From Actinomycetota bacterium (GTDB lineage Bacteria; Actinomycetota; Thermoleophilia; Miltoncostaeales; Miltoncostaeaceae): a DNA stretch of 39,259 nt. Position numbers and translations under genes: made by a program. Position 1 is the stretch's first letter, and each line of letters starts with the position of its first letter. Shown piece by piece: positions 23,426 through 38,037 of the stretch. A model generated the notes under the pieces. It did not search any database, was not told the DNA's origin, and saw nothing but the letters and a program-made list of their open reading frames with translations. The stretch lies in assembly GCA_005800465.1 (NCBI GenBank), contig SYFI01000003.1, positions 1 through 39,259 on the forward strand. Reading direction: 5' to 3'.

Positions 23426-24174
23426 TGTCTGATCGAGCGGCGGGTGGGTCCGCAGCCGCCCCCGGGCGGCGCGGCTGGATTGCCGGGGGCATCATCGCGC
23501 TGGTGCTGGTGGCGTTCGGGGTGTTCGTGCTGCCGTTCGCGTTCACCACGCCGCCGCCCATCATCACGCGCTTCACCTCCACCCTTCTGTTCAGCCCCGG
23601 AGCGCCGGGGGCACGTGATGTGGCCCGGGTGTCCATCCGGCTCAGCGAACCGAGCTCGGTGTCCATCGTGGTAAAGAACTCGTCGGGTGCTGTGGTGCGC
23701 ACGCTCGCCGACGGTGCCGTGGTGCGCACCAAGACGCTCAGCGTGCCATGGACCGGCAACGGCGACGGTGGCACCGCGGTGGTACCCGATGGCACCTACA
23801 CAATTGACCTCGAGGCCCATGCCGGGCAAAAGAAATTCTCCAAGAGCCGCCGCATCGTGGTGGACACCACCGCGCCCGGAGCGCCGGGTCTGACTGTTCG
23901 CATCGTCGGCTTCTCATGCGTGGCAGTGGTCACCGGACCGGACGAGCCCACGCGCCTGGTGGTGACCTCCCCGGCCACCGATGCCACTACCGACCCGCAT
24001 ACCCTGCCGGCGCAAGGCACGTTTACATGGACCACCCGCCGGGTGGCATCGGGTGCGCAGGCCATCATAGCCACGGTGAGTGACCCAGCGGGCAACACGG
24101 CGCGCACCACCCGCCCCTGCGCACCCGTGAAGCGGCCCGCGAAGGCCACTGCGTCTCCGGGAGCGCGCCCGTGA
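23425..24174 (+). CDS. N-terminally anchored extracytoplasmic protein with FlgD-Ig-like domain
   Basis: TM segment IAGGIIALVLVAFGVFVLPFAF, then VSIVVKNSSGAVVRTL...VPWTGNGDGGTAVVPDGTYTIDLEA (FlgD_ig-like pattern W.G....G..V.DG.Y), then VVDTTAPGAP (Ig-like linker motif). Confidence 0.65.
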   Translation: MSDRAAGGSAAAPGRRGWIAGGIIALVLVAFGVFVLPFAFTTPPPIITRFTSTLLFSPGAPGARDVARVSIRLSEPSSVSIVVKNSSGAVVRTLADGAVVRTKTLSVPWTGNGDGGTAVVPDGTYTIDLEAHAGQKKFSKSRRIVVDTTAPGAPGLTVRIVGFSCVAVVTGPDEPTRLVVTSPATDATTDPHTLPAQGTFTWTTRRVASGAQAIIATVSDPAGNTARTTRPCAPVKRPAKATASPGARP

Positions 24175-25715
24175 GCGCGGTAATGGTGCGCGAGGTCGCG
24201 GCCATCGCCGGTGCCGCTGGCATGGCCGTGATGCTTCTGCCGCGGGTCATCGGAGGTCCACTCCGCATTCCCGATGGTGCGCGCCGTGTCACCGGCCTGA
24301 TCATTCTCCTCGCTGCGTGGATCGCCATGGCGGCCACTCTGGTGCCGTCCGGAATCCAGGACCGCCTCGCGCGGCCCACGGACGCCGTCGCATCCGCAGT
24401 GGCCATCGTCATTGGTCTCGTGGTTGTCGCCTTCATTGGCAGGCATCTGGCCACCCATACCTGGGCGTGGTTCCTGCTGCTGGGCCTCGCACTGCCTATT
24501 CGCGTGCCCATCTCCGTTGGGGGCACCGATGCCAACCTGCTCATCCCGCTCTACGGGGTGATCGTGCTGGGCCTCATCACCTGGGCGTGGCAGGCGCGCG
24601 TCGACTCCGGGTCGCGCCGCTGGACCAGCACGGTGCTTGATCTCCCGCTGCTCTTGTTCGCCGGCTTCACACTGGTGTCGCTGTGCTGGTCGTCAGACAT
24701 CCCCCAGGCCGCCACCAAGATCACGTTCTTCTGGATCCCGTTCCTGCTCCTGTATGTGGTGGCCGTGCAGTTGTGGCGGCGGGGCCGCGCGCTCCCGGTG
24801 CTTGCCATCACCACCATGGCCATGGCAATCCCGGTGTCGCTCTTGGCCGTGGGCGAGTACATCGGCCGTGGCGTGCTGTGGAACCACCGCCTCGAGCAGG
24901 CCAACGTGTACAGCCGCTTCTTCCGGGTCAACTCGATCTTCTACGACCCCAACATCCTGGGGCGCTATCTGGTGCTGGCCATGCTCATCGGCGTGGCCGT
25001 GGCCTACCTGAAACGGGCGGATGGACGGGTGCTCATCGCCTGTGCCGTGGCCGAGATCATCTACGCCGCCGGTCTCACCGTGACGTTTTCGCGCTCGAGT
25101 GCGCTCATGCTGATGGTCGGACTGTTCATCATGTCGCTGCGCATGTTCGGGAGAAAGCGCGTGGTCATCGTCGCCGTCATCTTCAGCGTGCTCGGGTTCG
25201 GCGTGGCCGTGGCCGGATCGCATCAGGTGCGCGATGCCCTCACGTCCACATCGCGCCTGTCCAAGGTGAGCGAAGGGCGCTTTGACCTGATGGGTGGTGG
25301 GGTGGATTTGTGGAAGGCACACCCAGTGGTGGGTGGAGGCCTCGGTTCGTTCGCCACCGACTACTCGGCGCAGCTCTCGGGCGGCGAACTGCGCAAGACC
25401 CGCGTGGTCATCTCGCACAATGCGCCGGTCACCATCCTCAGCGAAGAGGGCGTCGTCGGATTCGCCCTGTTTACGTGGCTCTCGGTGCTGGCGCTGCTGG
25501 TGGGCATCCGTGCCGGCCGCGAGCGCGACGACCACGTGGGCGTGCCGGGCGCCATGATGCTTGCCGGGCTCGTGGGCATCTTCGTGCACGCGCTCTTGTA
25601 CTCGGCGCTCATTGAGGACCCGTATACGTGGCTGCTCGCCGCCGGGATCACGGTGGTCGTGGCCACGGCGCGAAGCAACGTTCTGCCCGAGCCCGGCACC
25701 GCAGAGGCGCCATGA
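24171..25715 (+). CDS. O-antigen ligase/polymerase family (Wzy_C) polytopic membrane protein, copy 1
   Basis: 514 aa, more than 10 TM. Wzy_C-like core TVTFSRSSALMLMVGLFIM, GGGLGSFATDY, ISHNAPVTILSEEGVVGFALF. GTGA overlap with the upstream gene. Confidence 0.8.
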   Translation: MSAVMVREVAAIAGAAGMAVMLLPRVIGGPLRIPDGARRVTGLIILLAAWIAMAATLVPSGIQDRLARPTDAVASAVAIVIGLVVVAFIGRHLATHTWAWFLLLGLALPIRVPISVGGTDANLLIPLYGVIVLGLITWAWQARVDSGSRRWTSTVLDLPLLLFAGFTLVSLCWSSDIPQAATKITFFWIPFLLLYVVAVQLWRRGRALPVLAITTMAMAIPVSLLAVGEYIGRGVLWNHRLEQANVYSRFFRVNSIFYDPNILGRYLVLAMLIGVAVAYLKRADGRVLIACAVAEIIYAAGLTVTFSRSSALMLMVGLFIMSLRMFGRKRVVIVAVIFSVLGFGVAVAGSHQVRDALTSTSRLSKVSEGRFDLMGGGVDLWKAHPVVGGGLGSFATDYSAQLSGGELRKTRVVISHNAPVTILSEEGVVGFALFTWLSVLALLVGIRAGRERDDHVGVPGAMMLAGLVGIFVHALLYSALIEDPYTWLLAAGITVVVATARSNVLPEPGTAEAP

Positions 25716-26791
25716 CCCTCCCGCCCCTACGCGTGATGTGTCTGTCAAACATGTATCCCGGGCCGGGTGCACCCGACTACGGCGCGTTTATCGAGCGCAT
25801 GTGCGACTGCATGGAGACCCGCGGTGCCCATGTGGAGCGCGTGGTCATCAACAGCCGCGCCTCAGGGGCGCTTCGCACGCCCGCGAAGTACGCGCGGCTG
25901 GCCACGCAGGCCATGAGTGGTGCCGGTGACGTCGATGTGATTTGGGCGCACTACCTCTTTCCCACCGGCCTCATCGCGTCGCTTGCGGGACGCATGCGAC
26001 GCACCCCCTGGGTGATCACCGCGCATGGCGGGGACGTGGCCAATCTTTCGCGGGGAACCATCCGCCAGTTGAGCAGCGGCGCCGTCTCGGGCGCCGCGAT
26101 GGTCATCGCCGTAAGCGAGTGGCTCGCCGGACGCATGTACGAGGAGGGCCTGCGACCCGAGCGGGTTGAGGTGGCCAGCATGGGCGTGGATACCGACCGC
26201 TTCCAGATCGGCGACCGGTTGGCTGCGCGTGTGCGGCTGTCGATCCCGGCCGACGTGCCCGTCGTCCTTGCGGTCGGTGGTCTCAGCGAGCGCAAGAATC
26301 CCATGGGTCTTCTGCAGGCATTCGCGCGCCTTCATGCCGATCGTCCCGATGCCCGTCTGGTGTTTGTGGGGGACGGCCCCCAGGCCGCGGTGATCGATGC
26401 CGGTTCACGGCGTCTCGGTATCCCAGGTGCCGTGCACCGGACGGGTGTGGTCCCCAACCGCAGCGTGACCGACTGGATGACCGCGGCCGACGTGGTGGCA
26501 CAGGTGAGCCTGGTGGAACCGCTGGGTGTGGCCGCGCTGGAAGCCATGGCCAGTGGGCGCCCGGTGGTGGGAACGTCGGTGGGGGGCCTCAAAGAGGTGG
26601 TGCCCGACGGCGTGGCGGGCGTGATTGTGGATCCGCGCGATCCGGTGTCCATCGCGGAGGGGCTCGTGCGGATGCTCGATGCCGGACCCGACCCGGAGAC
26701 CTGCCGGGCCGCGGCCATGGAGCACTCCCTTCTGCACGAAACCGACCGCGTGCTGGGGATTCTGGCAGCGGCCGCAGGGCGCCCGGCGTAA
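25712..26791 (+). CDS. Glycosyltransferase family 4 (TuaC-like N-terminus)
   Basis: MTLPPLRVMCLSNMYPGPGAPDYGAFIE.., VFVGDGPQ, VSLVEPLGVAALEAMASGRPVVGTSVGGLKEVV (GT4 E-x7-E). ATG 25712 overlaps the upstream TGA. Confidence 0.9.
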   Translation: MTLPPLRVMCLSNMYPGPGAPDYGAFIERMCDCMETRGAHVERVVINSRASGALRTPAKYARLATQAMSGAGDVDVIWAHYLFPTGLIASLAGRMRRTPWVITAHGGDVANLSRGTIRQLSSGAVSGAAMVIAVSEWLAGRMYEEGLRPERVEVASMGVDTDRFQIGDRLAARVRLSIPADVPVVLAVGGLSERKNPMGLLQAFARLHADRPDARLVFVGDGPQAAVIDAGSRRLGIPGAVHRTGVVPNRSVTDWMTAADVVAQVSLVEPLGVAALEAMASGRPVVGTSVGGLKEVVPDGVAGVIVDPRDPVSIAEGLVRMLDAGPDPETCRAAAMEHSLLHETDRVLGILAAAAGRPA

Positions 26792-26829
26792 CGGACGGCG
26801 GCGGCGCTCCTGCTAGCGTCACCTCTCAG

Positions 26830-28287
26830 ATGTCGGTACGCGTACCCACCGGGCCGACCGGCGCCCTCGGGGGTGTCGGCATCCGCGCCGCGGTCCTCGT
26901 TCTCGTCGCCGCGGTTGCCGCAGGCGCCCTCGCCGCGTACGCGCCGGTCCCGGGCGTGCTGCTGGCCGTCGCGCTTGTGGGGGTCATGCTGGTCCGGGGC
27001 CGCACCCTGCCCGAACTTGGCCGGGCCGCGGTGCTGGTGGCCCTCGTCACGGCGATCATCGGCCCCAACCTCGGGGTTCCGGGCCGCGCCGAGGTGTTCG
27101 CCTTCAGGTTCGTGGCCGTACTCATCATTCTGGGCATCGCCACCTGGCTGCTGATGGGCCGGGGGCTCCCGGTGCCCAATGGCCTTGGCATGCCCATGGC
27201 GCTGGTCGCAGGCTGGGTGGGCTGGGCGCTGGTGTCAATCAGCTGGGCAGGGTCCACCACCGACGCCATCCGCTGGACGACCTTTCTCATCATCAGCAGC
27301 GGAGTGATGCTGGCCATTCCGATCACGGCATCGTCACGCAGGTATCTGTCGTGGGTGCTGGGTGCGCTGGGGGCGGCATTCGTATTGTCAATTCTTGGTG
27401 CGCTGGCCGAGGTGTTCGCTGGCGTGCGCTTCCCCGCCTCGGCGCTCACGCCGCGCGAGGGCGCATTCGCCGCCACGTCGTTCTTCGGCAACCAGAACAA
27501 CTTCGCCACGTATCTGTCGCTCACCCTGCCCTACCTGGTGCTGTTGCCGGTGGTGGCACGCGACGCCCGAGTGAGGATCCTCGGGGCGGCGGGCGCGATC
27601 GTGGCGATCGTCTTCATCCTTTTCAGCGGCTCGAAGGCCAACCTCGGGGCGGTGGGAATCATCCTCGTCGGCATGCTCGTGGTGCTCGCCACCGACCGCT
27701 CCATGCGCCGCGCCTTTGTGGCGAGCGTGGTCGTGGTGGGGGCGGCACTGGCCCTCATCATCCCTTCGCTCTTCGGGGCCGGCATCGTGCCCATCCCCCA
27801 GCAGGCGGTGGCAAAGCTGAGCTTCAGCACCCTGCAGGCCCAGGTGAGTTCGGGCCAGGGCTCGGGTGCGGTGCGCAGCACACTGCTCACCAAGGGCATC
27901 GACATCGCGGCGAGCACCGGTGGAGTGGGCGTGGGCGCCGGCAATGCCGAGAACACCGTGCGATCTGAGAATGGCTACGAAGGCGTTGCCAACCTGCACA
28001 ACTGGACCCTCGAAGTGCTCGTGGACACCGGCGTTGTGGGTCTGGTCCTCTACGCCACGCTCTACATATTTATGCTCGTGGGCTGCTTCCGTGCCGCCCG
28101 CGGCAGCGGTGACCCGCTCATGCGGTACATGGGACTTGCCGGGCTTCTTGCCCTGCTGGGGTTCATCACCGGCAGTCTCGCGTGTTCCACGGTCATCGCC
28201 TTCGCGCCCATGTGGATCACCTTCGGTCTATGCCTCGCCACCATCGTGCTCGCCCGACGAGCCGGCCCCGACGGGAGAATCCCCTGA
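26830..28287 (+). CDS. O-antigen ligase/polymerase family (Wzy_C) polytopic membrane protein, copy 2
   Basis: 485 aa, more than 10 TM. ILFSGSKANLGAVGIILVG, VGVGAGNAENT, NLHNWTLEVLVDTGVVGLVLYATLY (the H-N-x-x-L-E pattern of the Wzy_C family). Confidence 0.8.
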   Translation: MSVRVPTGPTGALGGVGIRAAVLVLVAAVAAGALAAYAPVPGVLLAVALVGVMLVRGRTLPELGRAAVLVALVTAIIGPNLGVPGRAEVFAFRFVAVLIILGIATWLLMGRGLPVPNGLGMPMALVAGWVGWALVSISWAGSTTDAIRWTTFLIISSGVMLAIPITASSRRYLSWVLGALGAAFVLSILGALAEVFAGVRFPASALTPREGAFAATSFFGNQNNFATYLSLTLPYLVLLPVVARDARVRILGAAGAIVAIVFILFSGSKANLGAVGIILVGMLVVLATDRSMRRAFVASVVVVGAALALIIPSLFGAGIVPIPQQAVAKLSFSTLQAQVSSGQGSGAVRSTLLTKGIDIAASTGGVGVGAGNAENTVRSENGYEGVANLHNWTLEVLVDTGVVGLVLYATLYIFMLVGCFRAARGSGDPLMRYMGLAGLLALLGFITGSLACSTVIAFAPMWITFGLCLATIVLARRAGPDGRIP

Positions 28288-28313
28288 GCGATTCCGGCGC
28301 CCTGCGCATTCTC

Positions 28314-29498
28314 ATGCTCAGCCACATGTATCCGAGCCCGGTCAATCCGACCGGCGGAATCTTCGTGCACGAACAGGTGAAGGCCCTCTGCGACCGCGGC
28401 CACGATGTGCGCGTGGTGTCTCCCAAAGGTTGGGTGCCACCGGGTCTCAGCCGATGGGCGTCGTACCGCGACGTGAAGCCGCGGGCGGAGATTGACGACG
28501 TGCAGGTGTACTACCCGCGCAAGCTCACGCTTCCCGGCGCGCGTCTGGGCCACCGCAACGCCGACGCCTTCCTGTTGGGCGTGCGGAGAACCGTGCAGGG
28601 TATCCACCGTGAGTGGCCAATCGACGTGATCCACGCGCACATGGTTGTGCCCGATGGCTGGGCGGCCGCTCGTGTGGGGCACGGGCTCGGCGTGCCCGCC
28701 GTGGGCACCGCCCATCGCGCCGACGTGCTCGACATCCCCGCCATGGGTGCGGCACCGCGTATGCGGGTGGCCGAGGCCATCGAGAATCTTGACGCCGTGG
28801 TGACGGTGAGCCACGCCATCGGCCAGGCCGCAGACGCCATCGCCCGACCCCGCCGGGCAATCACGGTGGTGCCCAATGGCGCCGACGCCACAGTGTTCAT
28901 GCCCCGCGACGCACGCGTGGCCCGCGAACGCCTGGGGCTTGATCCAGATGCGCCCACCATCTCGTACGTGGGCAAGTTGGTGCCGCGCAAGGGCGTTGAC
29001 GACCTCATCGAGGCCATGGGAATCCTCGCCCGCCGCCCCGAGGGCGCACCGGCTCTGGTGATGGCCGGGATCGGCGAGATGCGCGGGCCGGCGGAGGCCC
29101 GGGCACGCGAGTTGGGCATTGCCGATCGCATTACGTGGCTTGGCAAGGTGCCGCACGATGACGTGGGGTGGGTCATGTCAGCGGGCGACATATTTGTGCT
29201 GCCGAGCCTCTCGGAGGGCCTTCCCACCGTGGTGTGCGAGGCCATGGCGTGCGGGCTGCCGGTTGTGGCCACCGCGGTGGACGGCACGCCCGAGATCGTG
29301 GACGACCCGGCCACCGGCCTGCTGGTGCAGCCGAAGGACCCGGTGGGGCTGGCGGCAGCGCTCGCCCGGGTGATGGGTGACGCCGCGCTGCGTGCTGCCA
29401 TGGGTGCCGAAGCCCTTCGGCGCAGCGAGGCCGACTACACGTGGGCGGCCAACGCCCTGCGCATGGAGGACGTGTACCGGCGGGTGATCGCCACTTGA
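28314..29498 (+). CDS. Glycosyltransferase family 4 (TuaC-like N-terminus)
   Basis: (LRIL)MLSHMYPSPVNPTGGIFVHEQVKAL, YVGKLVPRKG, VLPSLSEGLPTVVCEAMACGLPVVATAVDGTPEIV. The first canonical start is ATG 28314. Homology seems to extend upstream (ALRIL), so an in-frame CTG at 28284 overlapping the upstream TGA may be used. Confidence 0.85.
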   Translation: MLSHMYPSPVNPTGGIFVHEQVKALCDRGHDVRVVSPKGWVPPGLSRWASYRDVKPRAEIDDVQVYYPRKLTLPGARLGHRNADAFLLGVRRTVQGIHREWPIDVIHAHMVVPDGWAAARVGHGLGVPAVGTAHRADVLDIPAMGAAPRMRVAEAIENLDAVVTVSHAIGQAADAIARPRRAITVVPNGADATVFMPRDARVARERLGLDPDAPTISYVGKLVPRKGVDDLIEAMGILARRPEGAPALVMAGIGEMRGPAEARARELGIADRITWLGKVPHDDVGWVMSAGDIFVLPSLSEGLPTVVCEAMACGLPVVATAVDGTPEIVDDPATGLLVQPKDPVGLAAALARVMGDAALRAAMGAEALRRSEADYTWAANALRMEDVYRRVIAT

Positions 29499-30664
29499 CT
29501 GTGGCCACCGACGGCGTGGCCGTGGTGCTTCAGGCATCAGGCCCCAATGCGCTGGGTATCATCCGATCGCTGGCAGCCCGGGGCATTCCGGTTCTCGCCA
29601 CCGACTGCGACCCCAAGGCGCTCGGCATGCTGTCGCGGCATGCAAGGGCCGAGGTCGTGCGCGACCCGGTGGGCGACCCCGCAGGATTCCTCGACGATCT
29701 CGCGGCGCTGGGACGATCGCTCGACGTACCGGGTGTGCTCTTTCCCACGCACGACGAGGCCATTGAGGTCGTCGGCCCGGCAGAGGCCCACATCGGCCAG
29801 TGGTTCCGCATGCCGTGGAGCCCGTGGGCCGACCTCTCGCCCTACATCGACAAGTCCGGTCAGCACGCCGCGGCACGGCGCATTGGGTTCCCTGTGCCCG
29901 CCACTCTCGAGCCCACAGATGAGAACGACGTGCGTGCTGCCATCGGCGAAATGCGGTTCCCCGTCATCCTCAAGCCGCGTGTGGACCCCGCCGGCTTCAA
30001 ACGCACATTTGGGCGCCAGGTGCTGCAGGCCGAGGACGCCGACGCACTGCTTCGGCAATGGGACCGCGCCGAAGCCCACCTGCCACAGATCTCCGAGGTG
30101 ATCCCCGGGGGCGATGAGTGCTTGTGGACCCTCGGCAGCTACCGCGATGCCAGCGGCACACCATTGGCGTCATTCACGGGACACAAGCTTCTTCAGTGGC
30201 CCGTCGGGTTCGGCACCGCCCGGGCCGCCGAGGCGTGGTGGGACCCGAGCCTGGCCTGGCGATGCCATGCGCTGCTCGATGAGATCGGCTTCCATGGCAT
30301 CTCGCAGGTGGAGGTCAAACGCGATACCCGCGACGGCCGTGACTACCTGATTGAGGTCAACCCGCGATCGTGGCTGTGGATTTCCCTCGCCACCGAGGTG
30401 GGGGTCAACATTCCCGAGGCGGCCTTCCTCGATGCCGTCGGGCGCCCACACACGTGGCCCGAGGGGCACCGCAGCGACGTCCGGTGGGTGCTGGGTGCCA
30501 AGCATCTTGGTGCGAGTGCCGACAAGCTGCGCAGGGGTCGCCTGGGTCGCCGCGAACTCACCCGCACGCTCAAGCCACCGATCATCGATGGCGTGTGGTC
30601 GGTATCCGACCCGCGTCCGGGCATCGACCAGATGCGTCGGCTTCTCACTCGGAGGATCGGATGA
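29495..30664 (+). CDS. ATP-grasp carboxylate-amine ligase (COG3919-like, the group containing D-aspartate ligase)
   Basis: PNALGIIRSLAARGIPV, FPVILKPR, SEVIPGGDECLWTLGSY, GISQVEVKRD..DGRDYLIEVNPRSWLW are motifs I associate with the predicted ATP-grasp enzyme family. TTG 29495 overlaps the upstream TGA (TTGA); GTG 29501 is an alternative. Confidence 0.8.
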   Translation: MTVATDGVAVVLQASGPNALGIIRSLAARGIPVLATDCDPKALGMLSRHARAEVVRDPVGDPAGFLDDLAALGRSLDVPGVLFPTHDEAIEVVGPAEAHIGQWFRMPWSPWADLSPYIDKSGQHAAARRIGFPVPATLEPTDENDVRAAIGEMRFPVILKPRVDPAGFKRTFGRQVLQAEDADALLRQWDRAEAHLPQISEVIPGGDECLWTLGSYRDASGTPLASFTGHKLLQWPVGFGTARAAEAWWDPSLAWRCHALLDEIGFHGISQVEVKRDTRDGRDYLIEVNPRSWLWISLATEVGVNIPEAAFLDAVGRPHTWPEGHRSDVRWVLGAKHLGASADKLRRGRLGRRELTRTLKPPIIDGVWSVSDPRPGIDQMRRLLTRRIG

Positions 30665-33003
30665 CCACGCTGTCCATCCGCATCACCGGAGCCCGGGAGG
30701 CATTTGTCGCGCGCGCGCGATGGGTGCTGGAGACCATGGCCGAGGGCCTTGGCCATGAGGCCGTCTTCACCGATGATGCCAGCGACATCACCTATGCCCC
30801 GGACCCGCCCGAGTCGGGCATCTGGATCCCCATGCAGCGTGAGGCACAGGCATTCTTCGAGGGGCAGGAGGCATTCCCGGGCGAGGCAGTTCACCATGCC
30901 GCCGGGCTCACGCTGCTGTTTGCCCCGACGGCGGAGGACGCACCCATCCCCGGCGACATCGTGGCAAGCGCCTTCTATCTGCTGGCCCGCTGGGACGAAT
31001 ATCGCGTGGCCGACCGTGACCGCTTCGGGCGGCTGCCATTTGCGCGCAGCGCCTTCACGCACATCGAGGGGCTCGACATCGAGGACCCCGCGGTCGAGGG
31101 GTACCTCGCTGCACTCCGAACCGCCCTCGGTCTTCCCGCGCCCAGCTCCTGGACCGTGCACCTCACCCACGACATCGACCGTATTCGGCGGCACACGCCC
31201 CGGGGCATCGCCCGGTCAGTGAAGCGCCGGGGCCCAACCGCTGTGCGCGATCTGGTGCACCACGATCCGTGGGACAACCTCACCGATCTGCTTGAGACCA
31301 CATGGCGGCGGGGGTTGAGGTCAACCGTGTTCCTCATCGGGCGCAACCGACACCGCCTTGATGGCACCCCACGGCGGACGTACGAACGCGAACGGCGCAA
31401 CCTTGCGGCCGCGGTGCACGCGATGGGTGGCGAAGTGGCACTGCACGGCGCCTTCGCGTCGTCGGAGAGCGGGCAGGCACTAACGGAGGAGGTCGCGGTG
31501 CTGCGCGGCGAGGCCGGCGACATCCGCGGCGTGCGCTTTCACTACCTGCGCTTCAGGTACCACGACACCGCCCTGCGGGTGGAGCGCGCCGGACTCGCCT
31601 ACGACGCCAGCCTCGGTTTCAGTGAGCGCCCGGGGTTCGCAGCCGGTTACGCGAGGCCATTCCGTCCCTGGATCGTGGGCGAGGAGCGCGCCGCACACAT
31701 TCACCTGGTGCCGCTTGCGGTAATGGACACCACGCTGCACTCGCATCTCGGCCTGGCCGCAGATGACGCGCGCGACAAGGCATTGGCCGTGCTCGACCGC
31801 GTGCGCATCGCCGGTGGCTGCGTGGCGCTGCTCTGGCACAACACCTACCTGGCCGAGGAGCGGGCACCCGGCTACGACCGCCTGTGGGAAGACCTGCTCG
31901 ACGAGTTGATGGCCAGGGGAGCGACCCTGGGGCCCATTTCCCCGCCCGATCGCCCTGAGGGTGCACGCCTCGACGGTCGCCACATCGTGCACCTGACAAG
32001 CGTGCACAGCCCGCGTGACGTGCGGATCTTCCATAAGGAGATCGGTGCGCTCACCGCCGCAGGTGCCGAGGCCGAGGTCATGGCCGCACCACGCGGCGGT
32101 GGCCGGCTCGGGCGCATGACCCGCGGGGTGCGCCTGGTCAGGCAGGCGCGCACGGTGGACGCCGACGCGTACCACGTGCACGATCCCGAGCTGCTGCCCG
32201 CAGCCGTGTGGCTGCAGCGTGCCACCGGCCGGCCGGTGATCTACGACGCCCACGAGTATCTTGGCGAGACCACACGCACCAAGCGGTGGATCCCGGGGCC
32301 ACTCAGGCGTCCCGTTGCGGCGCTGGCCGCAGGCATGGAACGCGCCGCAGGCCGCAGGTTGTCCGGCGTGGTCACCGCCAATGAGGATCTGGCTGCCCGC
32401 TTCGCCGCCGCGGGATGCCGGGCCGTGAGCGTGAGCAACAACCCCTATGCCGCACAGTTCGGTGACCCGGGCGAGCCCGAGGGGCCCATCGTGCTGTACG
32501 TCGGGGGTCTCGGGCCGCTACGCGGCCTTCCGCTCATGCTCGAGGCATTCCCGCGGGTAGGTGTGGACGGCGCGCGGCTACTGCTGGCCGGTCCGGGCGA
32601 GGTGGGGACGCTTCCACCGGACATCGAATACCTAGGTGTGGTGGATCACTCGGCAGTGCCGGATCTGCTCAGGCGATCAGCGATTGCCTGGATCCCGCTT
32701 CGGCGCCATGGCAACTACGACCGCGCGGTACCCACCAAGTTGGTGGAGGCCATGGCCATGGGTCGCCCGGTGGTGGCCAGCGACCTGCCGCGCATGGCAG
32801 CGATCGTGCGGGCCACCGGGTGCGGCATCGTGGTGCCATTCGACGATCCCGATGCCCACGCTGCTGCCATCCGCAATCTGCTGCAGGACCCCGATCGTGC
32901 CCGTGCCATGGGTGCGGCAGGCCGTCAGGCATTCCTCGACGGCATGGCGTTTGAGAACGAGGCCGATGCCCTCACGTCGTTCTACGAGGAGGTTCTCGGC
33001 TGA
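30661..33003 (+). CDS. Fusion protein: N-terminal polysaccharide-deacetylase-like domain (about 30661-31950) + C-terminal GT4 glycosyltransferase (about 31975-33003)
   Basis: N-terminal part: WTVHLTHDIDRI, EVALHGAFAS, GVRFHYLRFRY, YDASLGFSERPGFAAGYARPFRPW, VALLWHNTY. The order resembles divergent CE4/NodB-type deacetylases. C-terminal part: RHIVHLTSVHSPRDVRIFHKE, VHDPELLP, VLYVGGLGPLRG, VPTKLVEAMAMGRPVVASDLP. ATG 30661 overlaps the upstream TGA. The 5' part of ORF 30370..33003 overlaps the ATP-grasp gene. Confidence 0.7.
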   Translation: MTTLSIRITGAREAFVARARWVLETMAEGLGHEAVFTDDASDITYAPDPPESGIWIPMQREAQAFFEGQEAFPGEAVHHAAGLTLLFAPTAEDAPIPGDIVASAFYLLARWDEYRVADRDRFGRLPFARSAFTHIEGLDIEDPAVEGYLAALRTALGLPAPSSWTVHLTHDIDRIRRHTPRGIARSVKRRGPTAVRDLVHHDPWDNLTDLLETTWRRGLRSTVFLIGRNRHRLDGTPRRTYERERRNLAAAVHAMGGEVALHGAFASSESGQALTEEVAVLRGEAGDIRGVRFHYLRFRYHDTALRVERAGLAYDASLGFSERPGFAAGYARPFRPWIVGEERAAHIHLVPLAVMDTTLHSHLGLAADDARDKALAVLDRVRIAGGCVALLWHNTYLAEERAPGYDRLWEDLLDELMARGATLGPISPPDRPEGARLDGRHIVHLTSVHSPRDVRIFHKEIGALTAAGAEAEVMAAPRGGGRLGRMTRGVRLVRQARTVDADAYHVHDPELLPAAVWLQRATGRPVIYDAHEYLGETTRTKRWIPGPLRRPVAALAAGMERAAGRRLSGVVTANEDLAARFAAAGCRAVSVSNNPYAAQFGDPGEPEGPIVLYVGGLGPLRGLPLMLEAFPRVGVDGARLLLAGPGEVGTLPPDIEYLGVVDHSAVPDLLRRSAIAWIPLRRHGNYDRAVPTKLVEAMAMGRPVVASDLPRMAAIVRATGCGIVVPFDDPDAHAAAIRNLLQDPDRARAMGAAGRQAFLDGMAFENEADALTSFYEEVLG

Positions 33004-34256
33004 TGGCACGCGTGCTCTATGTCTCGCAGTACTTCGTCTCCGCCGATCAGCCGGGTGGCGTTCGCCACTGGCAGCACACCCGGGCACTCGCCCGCGCCGG
33101 ACACGACGTCACGGTGGTCACCAGTTACGTGCAGCACAAGGAGCGCACAATCCCCGAGGAGTATCAGGGGCGGCGCATCGTGAAGTCGCGTGAAGACGGC
33201 GTCGATGTCATCCGCTGCTACTCAACGCCGGGCTACGGGCGCGATATGCGCTCACGCATGAGCAACTACGCCACATTCGCGCTGTGGTCGGTGCTGGCCG
33301 AACTCCGCATCCCGCGCCCCGACGTGGTCGTGGCGTCATCGCCACCACTGCCCGCTGCTGCTGTTGCCGCGGCATTTGCAAGCGCGAGGGGATGCCGGTT
33401 GCTTCTCGAAGTGCGCGACCTCTGGCCCGATTCCATCATTCCCATGGGCGTGGTCAAGGATTCCCGCGTGATCGCCGCTGCACGGAAGATGGAGCAATAC
33501 GCCTACCGGCGGGCCGACCGTATCGTGGCGCTCACCGAGGGCATCCGGGATGGCATCGCGGCACAGGGCATTCCGGCGGGTCGCATCAGCCTCATCACTA
33601 ATGGAATCGATCTGGACATCGCAGGCGGTGAGCACCCGCCCGCCGACGTGGGCGTGCCAGACGACGCCTTTGTCGCCATGTACGTGGGCAATCACGGCAC
33701 CTACTCGTCGCTGGGCACAGTACTGCAGGCCGCGAAGATGCTGGGGGACGACCCATCCATCCGCATCGTCCTGGTGGGAGGCGGCGACCAGAAGCCCATG
33801 CTGCAGGAGATGGCCCGCGACCTCGGCCTGCAGAACACCACCTTCATCGGATCGGTGCCCAAGCACGCGGTGCCGTCGTATCTCGAGCGTGCCGATATCG
33901 GGCTCATCCCGTACCAGGACATGCCCTTGTTCGCTGGGGCGCTGCCCAACAAGACGTTCGACTACATGGCCGCTGGCAGGCCGCTGCTCGCCGCTGCACC
34001 AGTTGGCGAGCTGACCGGGCTCATCGACCGTGCCGACTGCGGATGGAACGTGGCGCCGGAAGACCCCGCGGCCATGGCCGCCGCCATCCGCGACGCCGCC
34101 GGCAACCGGGCCACGGGGCTCGCCAGAGGCGCCCGGGGCCGGGAGTACGCACTGGCCGAATACGACCGTGCAGTGCTCGCAGCGCGCTTCGTGCGGCTGG
34201 TGGACGACCTCGCAGCATCCCCCCGTGCGCGCAGACGACGGCGGCCCGCGAGATGA
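33003..34256 (+). CDS. Glycosyltransferase family 4 (WbuB-like)
   Basis: MARVLYVSQYFVSADQPGGVRHWQHTRALARAGHDVTVVTS, MYVGNHGTYSSL, ALPNKTFDYMAAGRPLLAA. The start overlaps the upstream stop by 1 nt (TGATG). Confidence 0.9.
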   Translation: MARVLYVSQYFVSADQPGGVRHWQHTRALARAGHDVTVVTSYVQHKERTIPEEYQGRRIVKSREDGVDVIRCYSTPGYGRDMRSRMSNYATFALWSVLAELRIPRPDVVVASSPPLPAAAVAAAFASARGCRLLLEVRDLWPDSIIPMGVVKDSRVIAAARKMEQYAYRRADRIVALTEGIRDGIAAQGIPAGRISLITNGIDLDIAGGEHPPADVGVPDDAFVAMYVGNHGTYSSLGTVLQAAKMLGDDPSIRIVLVGGGDQKPMLQEMARDLGLQNTTFIGSVPKHAVPSYLERADIGLIPYQDMPLFAGALPNKTFDYMAAGRPLLAAAPVGELTGLIDRADCGWNVAPEDPAAMAAAIRDAAGNRATGLARGARGREYALAEYDRAVLAARFVRLVDDLAASPRARRRRRPAR

Positions 34257-34969
34257 CCATTGCATCGCCCGATGAACCGCTCCGCTACCGTGGGGAGCAC
34301 GTGCAGCAGATCGTTCCCGACACCGAGGCTGGCAGGGCGGCAGCCACTCGTCCGGTCGGCGGCGCAGCGAAGCGTGCCCTCGACCTCGTGGTCGCAGTGC
34401 CCGCGACGATCGCGCTCGCACCGGTCATGGCCGGCATCGCCCTCTGGGTGCGCCGCGACTCCGACGGCCCGGCCATTTTCCGCCAGGAGCGGGTGGGTGC
34501 GTTTGGCAAGCCGTTCAGGGTCCTCAAGTTCCGTTCGATGGTCATGAACGCCGAGCACATCGGGGCCGGGCTCGCCGTCACCGAGGACGACGACCGCATC
34601 ACCCGCGCCGGGCGCATCCTCAGGCGCCTGTCGCTCGACGAGCTGCCGCAGCTGATCAACGTGGTGAAGGGCGACATGAGCCTTGTGGGGCCCCGGCCCA
34701 CCGTGCCATGGCAGGTGGAGCGCTACGACGCCACCCAACGGCGGCGGCTTCTGGCACGGCCCGGGGTGACCGGGCTGGCCCAGGTGCGTGGCCGGGCATC
34801 TATCCCCTGGTCGGCGCGCATCGCGCTAGACGTGGACTACGTGGACAACTGGCGCATGGCCCGCGATCTGCGCATCCTTCTTGAGACGGTGCGTGTGGTC
34901 GTCCGTGGCGAGGGCTCATACCGCGGCGAGAGCGGTGGATTCGACCTCTCGGAGGGCACCGGTGGCTGA
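34253..34969 (+). CDS. Small polyprenyl-phosphate phosphoglycosyl transferase (bacterial sugar transferase family), pathway initiator
   Basis: AKRALDLVVAVPATIALAPVMAGIALWVRRDSDGPAIFRQERVG..GKPFRVLKFRSM, RLSLDELPQLINVVKGDMSLVGPRP, RPGVTGLAQV. ATG 34253 overlaps the upstream TGA. Confidence 0.92.
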   Translation: MTIASPDEPLRYRGEHVQQIVPDTEAGRAAATRPVGGAAKRALDLVVAVPATIALAPVMAGIALWVRRDSDGPAIFRQERVGAFGKPFRVLKFRSMVMNAEHIGAGLAVTEDDDRITRAGRILRRLSLDELPQLINVVKGDMSLVGPRPTVPWQVERYDATQRRRLLARPGVTGLAQVRGRASIPWSARIALDVDYVDNWRMARDLRILLETVRVVVRGEGSYRGESGGFDLSEGTGG

Positions 34970-35993
34970 CTCCCCGTCGGTGCTGCTCACCTGTGCCGGG
35001 CAGCGCGTGGACATCGTGCGGGCCTTCCGCGACGCCCTGCATCGCCGCGGCGAGGGTGGGCGGGTCGTCGTGAGCGACCTCGACCCGCTGTCGCCATCGC
35101 TGTACGCGGCCGATCTGGTGGTGGCGCTGCCGCCCGTGGACGACCCGGGGTACGGGCGTGCGGTGGCCGACGTCGTGGCCCGCGAGGGCGTGGGGGCCGT
35201 GCTTCCCCTCACCGACCTCGATCCGGTGGTGCTGGCCGAGGCGGCACCCCTGATTACCGAGGCAGGCGGGCGGGCATTCCTTCCCACCCCGCAGGTGGCG
35301 GCCGGGTGCCAGGACAAGTGGCTGTGCCACGAGATGCTTGAGGCGGCGGGACTTCCATCGCCACCCACCTGGCAACTCCGCACCGTCGATCAGTTGTCGC
35401 TGCCCTTTCCGGTGATGATCAAGCCGCGCATCGGGTTCGCCGGTCGGTGGATCCACCGTTGCGACGACACCGACGAGCTCGACTTCTTCCTGGCACGCAC
35501 ACCCGTGGCCAGCGTCATCCAGAAGGCGCTCCCGGGCGAGGAGTTCAGCATCGACTGCCTGGGGTCGCTGGACGCGCGCGCAATCGGTGCAATTCCCCGC
35601 TCCATGCTGCAGAGCAAAGGCGGCGAGCAGATCAAGGGCGAGACGCTTGACGACCCGCAGCTGGTGGACCTCGCGGCGCGCACTATCGAGGGGCTCGGCC
35701 TGGTGGGCCCCTGCACCATCCAGTGCTTCCGCGAGAATGGCGACATCCTTGGCATCACCGACATCAACACCCGCTTCGGCGGTGGCTTTCCGCTGCCCCT
35801 CGCGGCGGGCGGCGACTACCCCGTCCTCATCCTCGCAATGGCTGCAGATGAGGACGTCCCGCCCCGCCTCGGAGATCACCGCGCGGGTGTCGTGATGACA
35901 CGATTCCTCTCGGAGCGCATCCTCATGCGCGATGGTGAGGCACTCATACCCATGGCGGACCGCGGCGAGGAGGCGATGACCAGTGGCATCTGA
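34962..35993 (+). CDS. ATP-grasp domain protein (CPSase-large-subunit-like / ATP-grasp_4 type)
   Basis: LLTCAGQRVDIVRAFRDAL, DKWLCHEMLEAAGLPSP, FPVMIKPRIGFAG, IQKALPGEEFSIDC, GPCTIQCF..GDILGITDINTRFGGGFPL. GTG 34962 overlaps the PGT gene by 8 nt; the start is uncertain. Confidence 0.8.
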   Translation: MADSPSVLLTCAGQRVDIVRAFRDALHRRGEGGRVVVSDLDPLSPSLYAADLVVALPPVDDPGYGRAVADVVAREGVGAVLPLTDLDPVVLAEAAPLITEAGGRAFLPTPQVAAGCQDKWLCHEMLEAAGLPSPPTWQLRTVDQLSLPFPVMIKPRIGFAGRWIHRCDDTDELDFFLARTPVASVIQKALPGEEFSIDCLGSLDARAIGAIPRSMLQSKGGEQIKGETLDDPQLVDLAARTIEGLGLVGPCTIQCFRENGDILGITDINTRFGGGFPLPLAAGGDYPVLILAMAADEDVPPRLGDHRAGVVMTRFLSERILMRDGEALIPMADRGEEAMTSGI

Positions 35994-36780
35994 TCGCGAG
36001 ATCACCCTGGGGGACGTGGGGCGCACCATCTGGCGGGGCAAGTGGTACATCATCATCGCCGCAGTGGTGGGGGCGGTCATCGGGCTTCTCTTCACCTTCA
36101 CCTCAACCACCCAGTACACGGCGTCGGCAAAGGTGTACCTGGGCCAGGCCACGACCATGATGGGCAACCTCGCCCAGACCGCCGGCACCAACCCGCTCAC
36201 CGCGGCCACGATCCTGCAGGGTGATGTGGTGGTGGACGCCGTGGCGGAGAAGACCGGTCTCACGCGGTCGCAGGTGAACGCCGGCACCGACATCTCTGTG
36301 CCGCGGGCCCCCGGTACCACCAGCACCAACCAGCCGGCCATCGCCACCATCACCGCACGCACAGGGAGCACCGACACCTCCATCGCGCTGGCCAATGCCT
36401 ACGCCGAGGTGGCGCTGGCGGGGGCCAACAGCGGCTACGCGAGGGTGCAGCAAACCCTCGAGAACCAGGTGCGCGTGGCAACGGCCGACGTGGCTGCCCT
36501 GCGGGCACAGGCCAACCGGGGTGGCGGGAGCCAGTCGGCGATCATCTCCCAGCTGGCGTCGCTGCGCACTGATCTGGCCACCGCGCAGTTGCAACTGGCG
36601 CGCATACAGCAGATCGAGGCGCCGGCCGTGGTCTCGCTCGCGAAGAGTGCGGCGTCGTCCAGCAGCAGCAGCAACCGGATGCGCACAGCGATTATCGGTG
36701 GCCTCATCGGGCTGCTGCTGGGCACCGTCGTGGCCCTCATCGTGGGCGGCACAAGGCGGCGAGGGGCCTCGGCCACCTAG
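35983..36780 (+). CDS. Wzz-like polysaccharide co-polymerase (chain-length determinant), no kinase domain
   Basis: ITLGDVGRTIWRGKWYIIIAAVVGAVIGLLFTF (Wzz N-terminal pattern + TM1), a central predicted coiled region (QQTLENQVRVATADVAALRAQ..LRTDLATAQLQLARIQQ), and C-terminal TM2 AIIGGLIGLLLGTVVALIVGG. Confidence 0.8.
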   Translation: MASDREITLGDVGRTIWRGKWYIIIAAVVGAVIGLLFTFTSTTQYTASAKVYLGQATTMMGNLAQTAGTNPLTAATILQGDVVVDAVAEKTGLTRSQVNAGTDISVPRAPGTTSTNQPAIATITARTGSTDTSIALANAYAEVALAGANSGYARVQQTLENQVRVATADVAALRAQANRGGGSQSAIISQLASLRTDLATAQLQLARIQQIEAPAVVSLAKSAASSSSSSNRMRTAIIGGLIGLLLGTVVALIVGGTRRRGASAT

Positions 36781-36795
36781 GCCGGGCGCCCACCC

Positions 36796-38037
36796 ATGCG
36801 GCTCATCCCGCGTACGCAGAAGGGCATTGCCTGGTTCGTGTCGGGCGTCTGCATTCTTCTGGCCCTCGCAAGCGTGGGGCTGCTGGTGATCTCCGGGGGC
36901 CTTGACTCGGGCGACCAACTGGGGACCTCCGAGGGCTTCGTGCCCGCGAAGGCGCCGGTTGGTAACGCCACATCCACCTCGTGGCCCGAGTACGGCTACA
37001 ACGCCGAACGCACCCGGGCCAATCCGGACCTCGATCTGGCGCCCCCATTCGCCAAGGTGTGGCACCGCGAAGCCAGGGCGCTTGTGGAGTTTCCACCCGT
37101 TGTGAGCGATGGCCGCCTCGTGTTCGGCACCAATGGCCGGTACGCATTGTCGCTGAGCGTGGCCACCGGTGGCATCTACTGGTACGTCAAGCTTTCGGGC
37201 CGCGTGGCGGCATCGCCGGCGATCGCAGGCGATCTGGTGCTGTTCTCCACCGACGACGGCTACGTGACCGCCCGCCGCTTCGACCACGGGCAGGTGGTGT
37301 GGCATCGCAAGGTGGGCTCATCCGTTGAGTCGTCGCCGCTCGTCATTGGCAACCGCGCCTACGTGGGCACTCTCGATGGCCTCGTGAAGTGCCTCAATGT
37401 GCGCACTGGTGCGGTGATATGGACCTCCAAGGCAGCGGGCGCAGTGAAGTCGAGTCTCGCGCGATCGGGCAGGGACGTGGTGGTGGGCGACTATGGCGGT
37501 CAGGTCACCGCGTTCAATGCGCGCACCGGACGGATTCGTTGGCAGGCCACCAGCCCGGGGCAATTGCTCGGGGGTCCCGGCACCTTCTACGCAAACCCCG
37601 CCGTGGCCTACGGTCGCGTCTATGTGGCCAACGTCAATGGGCGCGTCATTGCACTCGATGCCAACGACGGATCCGTGGCCTGGGTGCGGGTGCTTGGAGA
37701 CTGGGTGTACTCAAGCCCCGCCGTGAGCGGCGACACCGTGTACGTGGGTTCCTACGACCATCGCCTGTATGCCTTCTCTGCAGTGACCGGTGGCGTGCGC
37801 TGGTCGTACGACGCGGGAGAGCGCATCGCCGGATCACCCACGGTCATCGGTGGGCTGGTGTGGTTCGCGACGCTTGCACGTAATCCGCGGCAAGGGCGTA
37901 CCTACGCCATTGACACCACGACCGGGCGGCGAGCCTTCACGTTCCCCGATGGGCGCTACACGCCCGCGGTGGGCGTGGACGGGCGGCTGATCCTCACGGG
38001 GGTCCGCACCCTCTACGGGCTGGCGCCCACCCCATGA
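36796..38037 (+). CDS. N-terminally anchored PQQ-like (BamB/YVTN-type) beta-propeller repeat protein
   Basis: TM segment IAWFVSGVCILLALASVGLLVI, then repeated blades: G.IYWYVKL.GRVAASPAI.GDLV, G.VVWHRKVGSSVESSPLV.GNRAYVGT.DG.V.CLN..TG.VIW, G.IRWQ, DGSVAWV..LGDWVYSSPAVSGDTVYVGSYDHRLYAF...G.VRW. Confidence 0.8.
   Translation: MRLIPRTQKGIAWFVSGVCILLALASVGLLVISGGLDSGDQLGTSEGFVPAKAPVGNATSTSWPEYGYNAERTRANPDLDLAPPFAKVWHREARALVEFPPVVSDGRLVFGTNGRYALSLSVATGGIYWYVKLSGRVAASPAIAGDLVLFSTDDGYVTARRFDHGQVVWHRKVGSSVESSPLVIGNRAYVGTLDGLVKCLNVRTGAVIWTSKAAGAVKSSLARSGRDVVVGDYGGQVTAFNARTGRIRWQATSPGQLLGGPGTFYANPAVAYGRVYVANVNGRVIALDANDGSVAWVRVLGDWVYSSPAVSGDTVYVGSYDHRLYAFSAVTGGVRWSYDAGERIAGSPTVIGGLVWFATLARNPRQGRTYAIDTTTGRRAFTFPDGRYTPAVGVDGRLILTGVRTLYGLAPTP

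Follow-up and report, generated by a model that had tools for sequence, protein, structure and literature searches.

A candidate deacetylation and re-acylation module in Miltoncostaeaceae: an ATP-grasp ligase gene coupled to a VimE-like deacetylase domain fused to a GT4 glycosyltransferase

A 39,259-nucleotide stretch of DNA from the actinobacterial family Miltoncostaeaceae (Thermoleophilia), hereafter the window (G+C content 67.8%), carries a gene for an ATP-grasp ligase (AG1) that overlaps a 780-residue open reading frame (ORF). The product of this ORF, hereafter the fusion, joins a VimE-like, predicted deacetylase domain to a glycosyltransferase of family GT4. There is about an even chance that the two proteins form a cytoplasmic module of three activities, those of the GT4 domain, the deacetylase domain and AG1 as the acylating enzyme, in a Wzx/Wzy-type surface-glycan cluster.

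A scheme of deacetylation followed by re-acylation is well supported by context, and its chemistry, acyl group and substrate level are putative assignments from sequence and analogy. The scheme is suggested by the recurrence of the linkage between ATP-grasp and deacetylase-like genes in three deep lineages, by the pairing of a non-homologous PIG-L deacetylase with an ATP-grasp enzyme as well, by the presence of acyl-installing enzymes downstream of other members of the deacetylase-like family, and by a published proposal with the same logic for the Vim proteins. All of the evidence is comparative, and it comes from uncultured organisms. The features described here are judged not to arise by chance, with homology E-values from 1e-20 to 1e-250 and conserved synteny. 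The main features, all on the + strand, are as follows.

29495 to 30664, + strand: AG1, three-domain ATP-grasp ligase, 389 residues (ORF call; Pfam, AlphaFold2 (AF2), Foldseek, residue conservation)
30661 to 33003, + strand: fusion ORF, 780 residues, VimE-like deacetylase domain and GT4 (Pfam, NCBIfam, G+C content at third codon positions (GC3), in-frame relatives)
30661 to 31185, + strand: N-terminal α/β subdomain (residues 1-95) and DUF7033 (residues 97-175) (Pfam PF23019, E = 2.6e-9; AF2 secondary structure)
31138 to 31932, + strand: CE4-like (β/α) barrel, residues ~160-424 (NCBIfam NF053580, Foldseek, alignment to 3rxz, conservation)
31933 to 31983, + strand: inter-domain linker, residues 425-441, GPISPPDRPEGARLDG... 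(drop in pLDDT towards the C-terminus of the N-domain model)
31984 to 33003, + strand: GT4 (GT-B) domain, residues 442-780 (Pfam; PimA as the closest solved relative)

The genes are tightly packed. The start codon of AG1 is the TTG at 29495, which overlaps (as TTGA) the stop codon TGA of GT4b, the glycosyltransferase gene upstream, and the length of AG1, 389 residues, is the modal length among its homologs. The AG1 stop and the ATG of the fusion overlap as ATGA at 30661-30664; this overlap and the ORF coordinates are as given in an earlier note on this DNA. The stop of the fusion shares one nucleotide (33003) with the ATG of the downstream gene GT4c, which is therefore translationally coupled as well.

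The fusion protein and its ATP-grasp partner

The N-terminal domain (N-domain) of the fusion is, by sequence comparison, a homolog of VimE, not a VimE equivalog. Residues 70-416 match the NCBIfam model of the VimE deacetylase family (NF053580) with an E-value of 3.5e-33, over profile positions 55-429 of 431. The architecture of VimE, DUF7033 followed by a CE4-like barrel, is matched by this domain, and DUF7033 is carried by all 74 of the 74 relatives. The N-terminus of the fusion is conserved in the related locus L001, and Asp99 and Arg124 are conserved in the N-terminal subdomain and DUF7033.

The AF2 model of residues 1-440, built with 74 homologs, has a pLDDT of 94. The top Protein Data Bank (PDB) matches of this model in Foldseek are all polysaccharide-deacetylase or PuuE-type barrels, with 3rxz as the best (E = 1.8e-7), followed by insect chitin deacetylase (5znt), 3s6o, PuuE (3cl6), HpPgdA (3qbu), 1z7a and NDST1 (9f6z). 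The Foldseek probability is 1.0 for 3rxz, 5znt, 3s6o, 3cl6, 3qbu and 1z7a. A PDB search with the N-domain sequence alone gave no meaningful match, whereas the profile and fold searches did, and the family profile finds 3rxz by sequence with an E-value of 1.4e-5.

The candidate catalytic residues are Asp171, Asp173, Glu258, His262, Arg292, His294, Asp315, Asp356 and His393, and the conserved acidic and His residues are located at the C-terminal ends of the barrel strands. The position of CE4 motif 1, at the end of strand 1, reads HDID (Asp171-x-Asp173); it is invariant, and its spacing is unlike that of the canonical DD (TFDD), which supplies the catalytic base and a metal-binding Asp. In the hidden Markov model (HMM) alignment, His262 corresponds to the first of the two metal-binding His of the HxxxH motif of 3rxz and Arg292 to the Arg of motif 3, which reads RFHY here and RxPY in CE4 enzymes. 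His294 is a conserved candidate stand-in for the second His of motif 2. The LxH of motif 5, which holds the catalytic acid in CE4 enzymes, is found in LLWHN, with His393 conserved across the family. Asp99, Arg124, Asp171, Asp173, Glu258, His262, Arg292, His294, Asp356 and His393 show little or no variation among relatives of 97% down to 22-30% identity, and Asp315 is conserved too, with Glu in one clade. Sequence and model together point to a divergent CE4-like hydrolase with an intact-looking, non-canonical active site, and the deacetylase-like character that the earlier note gave to the N-terminal ~430 residues is borne out by the VimE match, the CE4/PuuE-type folds and the conservation of Asp171, Asp173, His262, Arg292, His294 and His393.

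The C-terminal ~340 residues of the fusion are a GT4 domain, as the earlier note had it. Both Rossmann halves are matched in Pfam at residues 460-771, and all three models score above their cut-offs: Glyco_trans_1_4 (79.8 bits, E = 3e-22), Glycos_transf_1 (65.8 bits, 4.6e-18) and Glyco_trans_4_4 (36.6 bits, 7e-9). The closest solved relatives are ordinary GT4s, namely PimA (1.7e-11), PimB', MshA and PglA. The motifs on which the note had relied (HLTHDID, ALHG, RFHYLRF, LLWHN, VHLTSVH and RIFHKE) are all found in the 780-residue translation. Its "E-x7-E-type region" holds in part: the region reads RAVPTKLVEAMAMGRPVV, in which the second Glu is kept (in PTKLVEAMAMG), but the first position is not Glu and the canonical E-x7-E is absent. 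Loss of the first Glu of this motif is a variation known in WcaI-like GT4s.

The two domains are encoded in one continuous frame. GC3 is 0.80-0.82 in both halves of the ORF, which is the codon-position G+C pattern of the real genes of the window. The fusion is found in one frame in ~60 species-level genomes of Thermoleophilia/Miltoncostaeaceae, at 48-97% identity, and in essentially all of the relatives from short-read assemblies. A few relatives look split or mis-fused, in L004, L061, L064, L071, L076, L079 and L084 and in the proteins P0042, P0027 and P0054, and most of these exceptions are on long contigs with many broken genes. One protein considered as a standalone close homolog, P0010, was rejected as a frameshift-split fusion. 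Proteins that join AG1 to the deacetylase domain (P0042, P0027, P0054, P0038 and P0093) were not used as Rosetta-stone evidence, since they are mostly from long contigs with broken genes and a single indel at the 4-nucleotide overlap would merge the two genes.

AG1 is, by its sequence and predicted structure, a complete three-domain ATP-grasp enzyme. The Pfam match to ATPgrasp_Ter is weak (2e-4), and there is an HMM match to Ddl B (9e-6). The AF2 model (pLDDT 92.8) matches ATP-grasps of the biotin-carboxylase type in Foldseek at 1e-16 and 2pn1 with a TMt of 0.77. Lys160, Glu273, Glu287, Asn289 and Arg291, which include the ATP/Mg ligands of the E-x-N motif, are invariant, and the neighboring gene is an intact ATP-grasp gene, as had been claimed. 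More than 315 homologs of AG1 were found, and identities are 58-96% among the 120 best listed. The name "D-aspartate ligase" on these homologs is an automatic JGI name and is the sole support for that group; the NCBIfam matches are weak and generic. No signal peptide or transmembrane segment is predicted in AG1 or in the fusion, and the predicted location of both proteins is cytoplasmic, in agreement with the earlier note.

Conservation of the pairing and the surrounding cluster

The database search suggested in the earlier note, for the same domain fusion and its neighbors, covered one genome per GTDB species. A relative is encoded in 276 of these genomes, and the loci of the best 80 were compared. 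These 80 are all metagenome-assembled genomes (MAGs) of Thermoleophilia/Miltoncostaeaceae, some of them mislabelled. Three records labelled as 'Bifidobacterium breve' MAGs (L006, L017 and L022) carry the Thermoleophilia-type cluster and are probably mislabelled bins. By tBLASTn with 15 window proteins the whole cluster is syntenic across loci, with full synteny in L001, L006 and most Thermoleophilia loci. AG1 is located directly upstream of the fusion in ~55 of the 67 evaluable loci (82%), usually with an overlap of 4-8 nucleotides.

The loci that have the fusion and no adjacent AG1 include a clade at 49% identity, in which the cluster is reduced to the Ig-like protein, Wzy, GT4a, Wzy, the fusion, Wzz, the propeller and MurJ. 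Two genomes of the set without an adjacent AG1 (L028 and L034) were checked, and both encode an AG1 ortholog (58-59% identity) elsewhere on the same contig, where it adjoins PglD-like sugar N-acyltransferases. In the L028 genome (L169:7837-13100), the AG1 ortholog overlaps the stop of a 373-residue protein with Biotin_lipoyl, PglD_N and Hexapep domains, and genes for 2-oxoacid dehydrogenase E1 alpha and beta, a sulfotransferase and an Acyl_transf_3 protein are nearby. By its domains, this region resembles a system of sugar N-acylation linked to a lipoyl carrier.

A distant high-GC lineage (L005, L085 and L086) has the same block as four separate adjacent genes, for a GT4, an ATP-grasp, a DUF7033 protein and a second GT4. 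Their identities to the window are 35% for the first GT4 (to GT4b), 41% for the ATP-grasp (to AG1, 1e-85) and 36-38% for the DUF7033 protein, and the last GT4 is 35% identical to the GT4 domain of the fusion and orthologous over its full length. From this arrangement, the window protein is a fusion of formerly neighboring genes. A second set in the same lineage (L085:12862-16940 and L086:10693-12408) contains the PIG-L deacetylase, an ATP-grasp and a GT4 that is 32% identical to GT4c; in L085 it ends with a FemAB-like gene. In MAGs of Bacteroidales, the third lineage, the DUF7033 gene overlaps an ATP-grasp gene downstream of it, the product of which is specifically AG1-like (4e-22, compared to 9e-7 to the second ATP-grasp of the window, AG2), and the pair adjoins groEL, outside any glycan cluster. 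The adjacency is thus conserved with different gene orders and contexts.

The DUF7033/VimE-like family is large, with 6883 clusters (at 50% identity) at E <= 1e-3 and 4211 at E <= 1e-10, and most members are standalone proteins of 430-500 residues. In other clades of the family, the gene immediately downstream of the DUF7033 gene encodes a PlsC-type acyltransferase in 24 loci (L133-L167), a GNAT-like protein of 364 residues in 13 loci (L094-L118) and an AAC(3)-like N-acetyltransferase in 2 loci (L106/L107). Independent fusions of DUF7033 and GT4 domains occur in the same order in P0226 and P0223 and in the reverse order in P0343, from a low-GC organism, and the GT4 domains of P0226 and P0343 have the canonical EX7E. 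One protein of 6683 residues (P0321) has 18 separate stretches that match N-domain residues ~118-181, within the DUF7033 segment.

The + strand cluster around AG1 and the fusion extends over ~17 kb, from ~21540 to the end of the window. Its 5' part consists of genes for an unannotated protein, a methyltransferase, an Ig-like membrane protein, Wzy_C, GT4a, Wzy_C and GT4b, and its 3' part of AG1, the fusion, GT4c, a hexose-1-phosphate polyprenyl-phosphate transferase, AG2, Wzz, a PQQ-type propeller and a MurJ-type flippase. The Wzx/Wzy-type assembly set is complete, with the initiating phosphoglycosyltransferase (Bac_transf 1e-62, EPS_sugtrans 1.6e-80), two Wzy_C proteins, Wzz and MurJ (9.6e-56). 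The neighboring features are as follows.

24171 to 28287, + strand: two Wzy_C genes and GT4a, upstream of GT4b
28182 to 29498, + strand: GT4b, upstream glycosyltransferase (Pfam; best NCBIfam match TuaC, weak)
33003 to 34256, + strand: GT4c, downstream glycosyltransferase, WcaI-like (ORF call, Pfam, NCBIfam)
34043 to 38037, + strand: rest of the assembly cluster, with the hexose-1-phosphate polyprenyl-phosphate transferase, AG2, Wzz and the PQQ-type β-propeller (Pfam, NCBIfam)
34881 to 35993, + strand: AG2, second ATP-grasp
36796 to 38037, + strand: PQQ/BamB-like β-propeller
38034 to the end of the window, + strand: MurJ-type flippase

The AG2 gene, flanked by those for the phosphoglycosyltransferase and Wzz, encodes a protein with a PylC-like N-terminal domain (PRK12767-type, 238 bits). 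Only about half of the syntenic clusters have AG2, irrespective of whether they have AG1. The two Wzy_C (O-antigen polymerase/ligase-like) paralogs, at 24171-25715 and 26830-28287, are both kept even in the reduced clade without AG1, and the cluster of every relative includes the propeller, which carries a membrane anchor at its N-terminus. The longest-ORF starts of GT4b (28182), the phosphoglycosyltransferase (34043) and AG2 (34881) overlap the preceding genes by ~90-210 nucleotides, and the homologs called in L001 are shorter (394, 239 and 343 residues, respectively). The true starts of these three genes are therefore probably further downstream.

The proposed module and the alternatives

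In the proposed pathway, the GT4 domain of the fusion would transfer a sugar, and the fused VimE-family CE4-like domain would remove the N-acetyl group from that sugar, from its neighbor or from the nucleotide precursor, to leave a free amine. The translationally coupled AG1 would activate a small carboxylate as an acyl-phosphate and ligate it to the freed amine, using ATP. The carboxylate would most likely be an amino acid, a guess from ATP-grasp chemistry and the analogy to VimA. The repeat unit would thereby gain an N-acyl or N-aminoacyl hexosamine ahead of MurJ-like flipping and polymerisation. The substrate may be a UDP-sugar, as implied by the NCBI name for VimE, or an undecaprenyl-pyrophosphate-linked intermediate, as the earlier note had proposed. 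A functional link between the fusion and AG1 is suggested also by the independent GT4 fusions of the DUF7033 domain.

Several observations weigh against this pathway. The VimE score of the N-domain is 115 bits, compared to an equivalog cut-off of 440 bits (NF053580), and seven relatives scanned against this model score 61-149 bits. The deacetylase activity of VimE is itself only a proposal (PMC7468200). The window protein has no match to the polysaccharide deacetylase model PF01522 in Pfam, even at E <= 10. The comparison of a predicted structure with CE4 and PuuE folds, which the earlier note had called for, confirmed the deacetylase barrel but left the HxxxH of motif 2 incomplete, its second His being absent in the alignment to 3rxz. 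The fold of AG1 matches only the generic biotin-carboxylase type, from which a substrate cannot be read. Moreover, ~11 species-level loci have the fusion, catalytic residues included, with no adjacent AG1; the reduced clade among them also lacks GT4b, GT4c, the phosphoglycosyltransferase and AG2, and the AG1 orthologs of the L028 and L034 genomes are at least 16 kb away from the fusion, in other contexts. Across a metagenome sample of a broad Bacteroidota-type set, an AG1-type ATP-grasp is the neighbor in only 9 of 65 evaluable loci, and the PlsC-type partner of other clades could equally be a lipid O-acyltransferase.

AG1 may instead be a uronic-acid amidoligase, or another ligase of carboxylates on glycans, that works independently of the deacetylase and is adjacent to it only as a member of the same cluster. 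This alternative is unlikely, at perhaps one chance in five by our estimate, and is the strongest of those considered. It has a precedent in Cj1438C, an ATP-grasp that amidates the C6 carboxylate of GlcA in a capsule and that forms part of a fusion with a glycosyltransferase (PMC11800379). The best NCBIfam matches of GT4b and GT4c, both weak, are the teichuronic-acid enzymes TuaC and TuaH, and both the AG1 orthologs that can function away from the fusion and the fusions with no adjacent AG1 are in line with it. However, AG1 has no match to ATPgrasp_TupA at E <= 10 in Pfam, and a gene for UDP-sugar 6-dehydrogenase is absent from the window cluster and from L001, L085 and L086. The Bacteroidales pair consists of a deacetylase-like gene and an ATP-grasp gene alone, in no glycan cluster. 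In addition, the non-homologous PIG-L deacetylase is also found with an ATP-grasp, so that the free amine looks like the common denominator.

A second alternative, less probable still, is that a free-amine (cationic) hexosamine is the end product, as for PgdA, IcaB and PgaB, and that AG1 has an unrelated role in a precursor or a separate decoration. Many CE4 enzymes do work with no re-acylation, and the persistence of the fusion and its catalytic residues in clades with no adjacent AG1 fits such a product. Against it stand the translational coupling of AG1 in 82% of evaluable loci, the recurrence of the pairing across phyla, and the AG1 ortholog retained on the same contig in both of the AG1-nonadjacent genomes checked. 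The known CE4 enzymes acting on surface polymers are extracellular, moreover, whereas the fusion domain is predicted to be cytoplasmic.

It is improbable, more so than either of these, that the N-domain is no N-deacetylase and acts instead as an esterase or O-deacetylase, as an amidohydrolase of another kind (PuuE-like), or as a module that binds sugar for the GT4 with no catalysis of its own. The non-canonical CE4 motifs (HDID for DD, a single His in motif 2, RFHY for RxPY), the PuuE allantoinase among the structural matches and the missing PF01522 match of the window protein would agree with such a role. On the other hand, the acidic and His residues at the strand ends are strictly conserved over more than 4000 family clusters, the profile that fits the domain best is that of the VimE family, and 10 of the 74 relatives do match PF01522 weakly (best E-value 1.7e-5), while 4 of the 74 match a WbmS-like deacetylase family. 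Finally, an assembly or frameshift artefact, the scenario that the earlier note had allowed for and that a few split or mis-fused relatives might recall, is rejected with near certainty on the uniform GC3 and the ~60 independent in-frame assemblies, the exceptions being mostly on long contigs with many broken genes.

A broader form of the re-acylation pathway can be put forward tentatively, with somewhat less confidence than the module itself. AG1 would represent an ATP-grasp subfamily, so far uncharacterised, that is dedicated to re-acylation after DUF7033/VimE-type sugar N-deacetylases and needs no tRNA. Together with the GT4 of the fusion, it would introduce N-aminoacyl (peptide-bearing) hexosamines into a Thermoleophilia surface glycan. 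More generally, DUF7033 proteins may be acetyl-swap deacetylases that invariably have an acyl-installing partner, the type of which varies (ATP-grasp, GNAT, FemAB-like or AAC(3)-like).

Significance and comparison with known systems

Non-acetyl N-acyl groups on bacterial amino sugars shape antigenicity, charge, and recognition by phages and the immune system, and the enzymes that install them are mostly unknown. If correct, the proposed pathway would assign a function to the large, uncharacterised DUF7033/VimE-like family and to a widespread ATP-grasp subfamily now annotated automatically as "D-aspartate ligase". It would also extend Vim-type pathways by a route that depends on ATP and not on tRNA, offer a concrete three-protein system for in vitro reconstitution, and give a first glimpse of the chemistry of cell-envelope glycans in Miltoncostaeaceae, a common and almost uncultured group of freshwater and soil actinobacteria. 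The strategy of deacetylation followed by re-acylation is already known, and fusions of glycosyltransferases and deacetylases already exist. What is new is the fusion of a cytoplasmic VimE-type deacetylase with a GT4, the presence of an ATP-grasp in the place of the re-acylating enzyme, and the family-wide pattern of pairing; a literature search found no description of DUF7033 or of a glycan module of an ATP-grasp and a deacetylase.

Among the closest known systems is the Wbp/Vim pathway of Porphyromonas gingivalis and Tannerella forsythia. In the published proposal, the putative deacetylase VimE acts first, VimA then adds Ser or Gly, and the GT4 VimF is encoded downstream (PMC7468200). The N-domain of the fusion is homologous to VimE, the proposed logic (N-acetyl group off, amino acid on) is the same, and each system has a GT4 encoded beside the deacetylase. 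In contrast, the acylating partner in the window is an ATP-grasp and not the FemAB/GNAT-type VimA; no VimA-type FemAB-like transferase is found in the window, and a FemAB-like gene occurs only in the distant clusters of the L085 type. The deacetylase and the GT4 are one polypeptide in the window, a search of the window for Wbp-type amino-sugar genes found none, and the window comes from an actinobacterium whose cluster is of the Wzy type, not from a bacterium with a type IX secretion system/anionic lipopolysaccharide (T9SS/A-LPS) system.

The NodC/NodB/NodA (Nod factor) and LpxC/LpxD (lipid A) pathways also remove an N-acetyl group in the cytoplasm and then install a different acyl group. NodB is the founding CE4 enzyme, and the fold of LpxC is unrelated to that of the deacetylase domain of the fusion. 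In both pathways, however, the re-acylation is carried out by acyl-ACP transferases and not by an ATP-dependent ligase, and the enzymes are separate proteins.

In the synthesis of mycothiol and bacillithiol, a GT4 (MshA/BshA) and a deacetylase (MshB/BshB) act before a ligase (MshC/BshC) that uses ATP to join an amino acid, Cys, to the amine of the sugar. The weak matches of the GT4 domain include MshA and BshA. The deacetylases of these pathways have the PIG-L/LmbE fold, however, MshC resembles aminoacyl-tRNA synthetases and not ATP-grasps, the product is a soluble thiol rather than a polymer, and the genes are unfused.

A physical link between an ATP-grasp and a glycosyltransferase is known from Cj1438 of Campylobacter jejuni, a GT2 fused to a TupA-like ATP-grasp amidoligase (PMC11800379). 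As proposed for AG1, its ATP-grasp makes an amide on a surface polysaccharide. It activates the carboxylate of the sugar itself, though, whereas AG1 is not TupA-like and is linked to a deacetylase.

A deacetylase joined to a second glycan-processing activity is seen in MatB of Streptomyces and in N-deacetylase/N-sulfotransferase (NDST). MatB combines a GT2 with a CE4 domain that is described as extracellular (PMC5972031). The earlier note had regarded a deacetylase fused to a GT4 as unusual; the combination of a VimE-type domain with a GT4 is indeed new, but MatB is a precedent for the joining of a glycosyltransferase and a deacetylase, and the fusion is common within its own class. MatB differs from the fusion in its extracellular deacetylase domain and its processive GT2 synthase. 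NDST1 is among the structural matches of the N-domain; NDST differs in that the amine is re-functionalised with sulfate.

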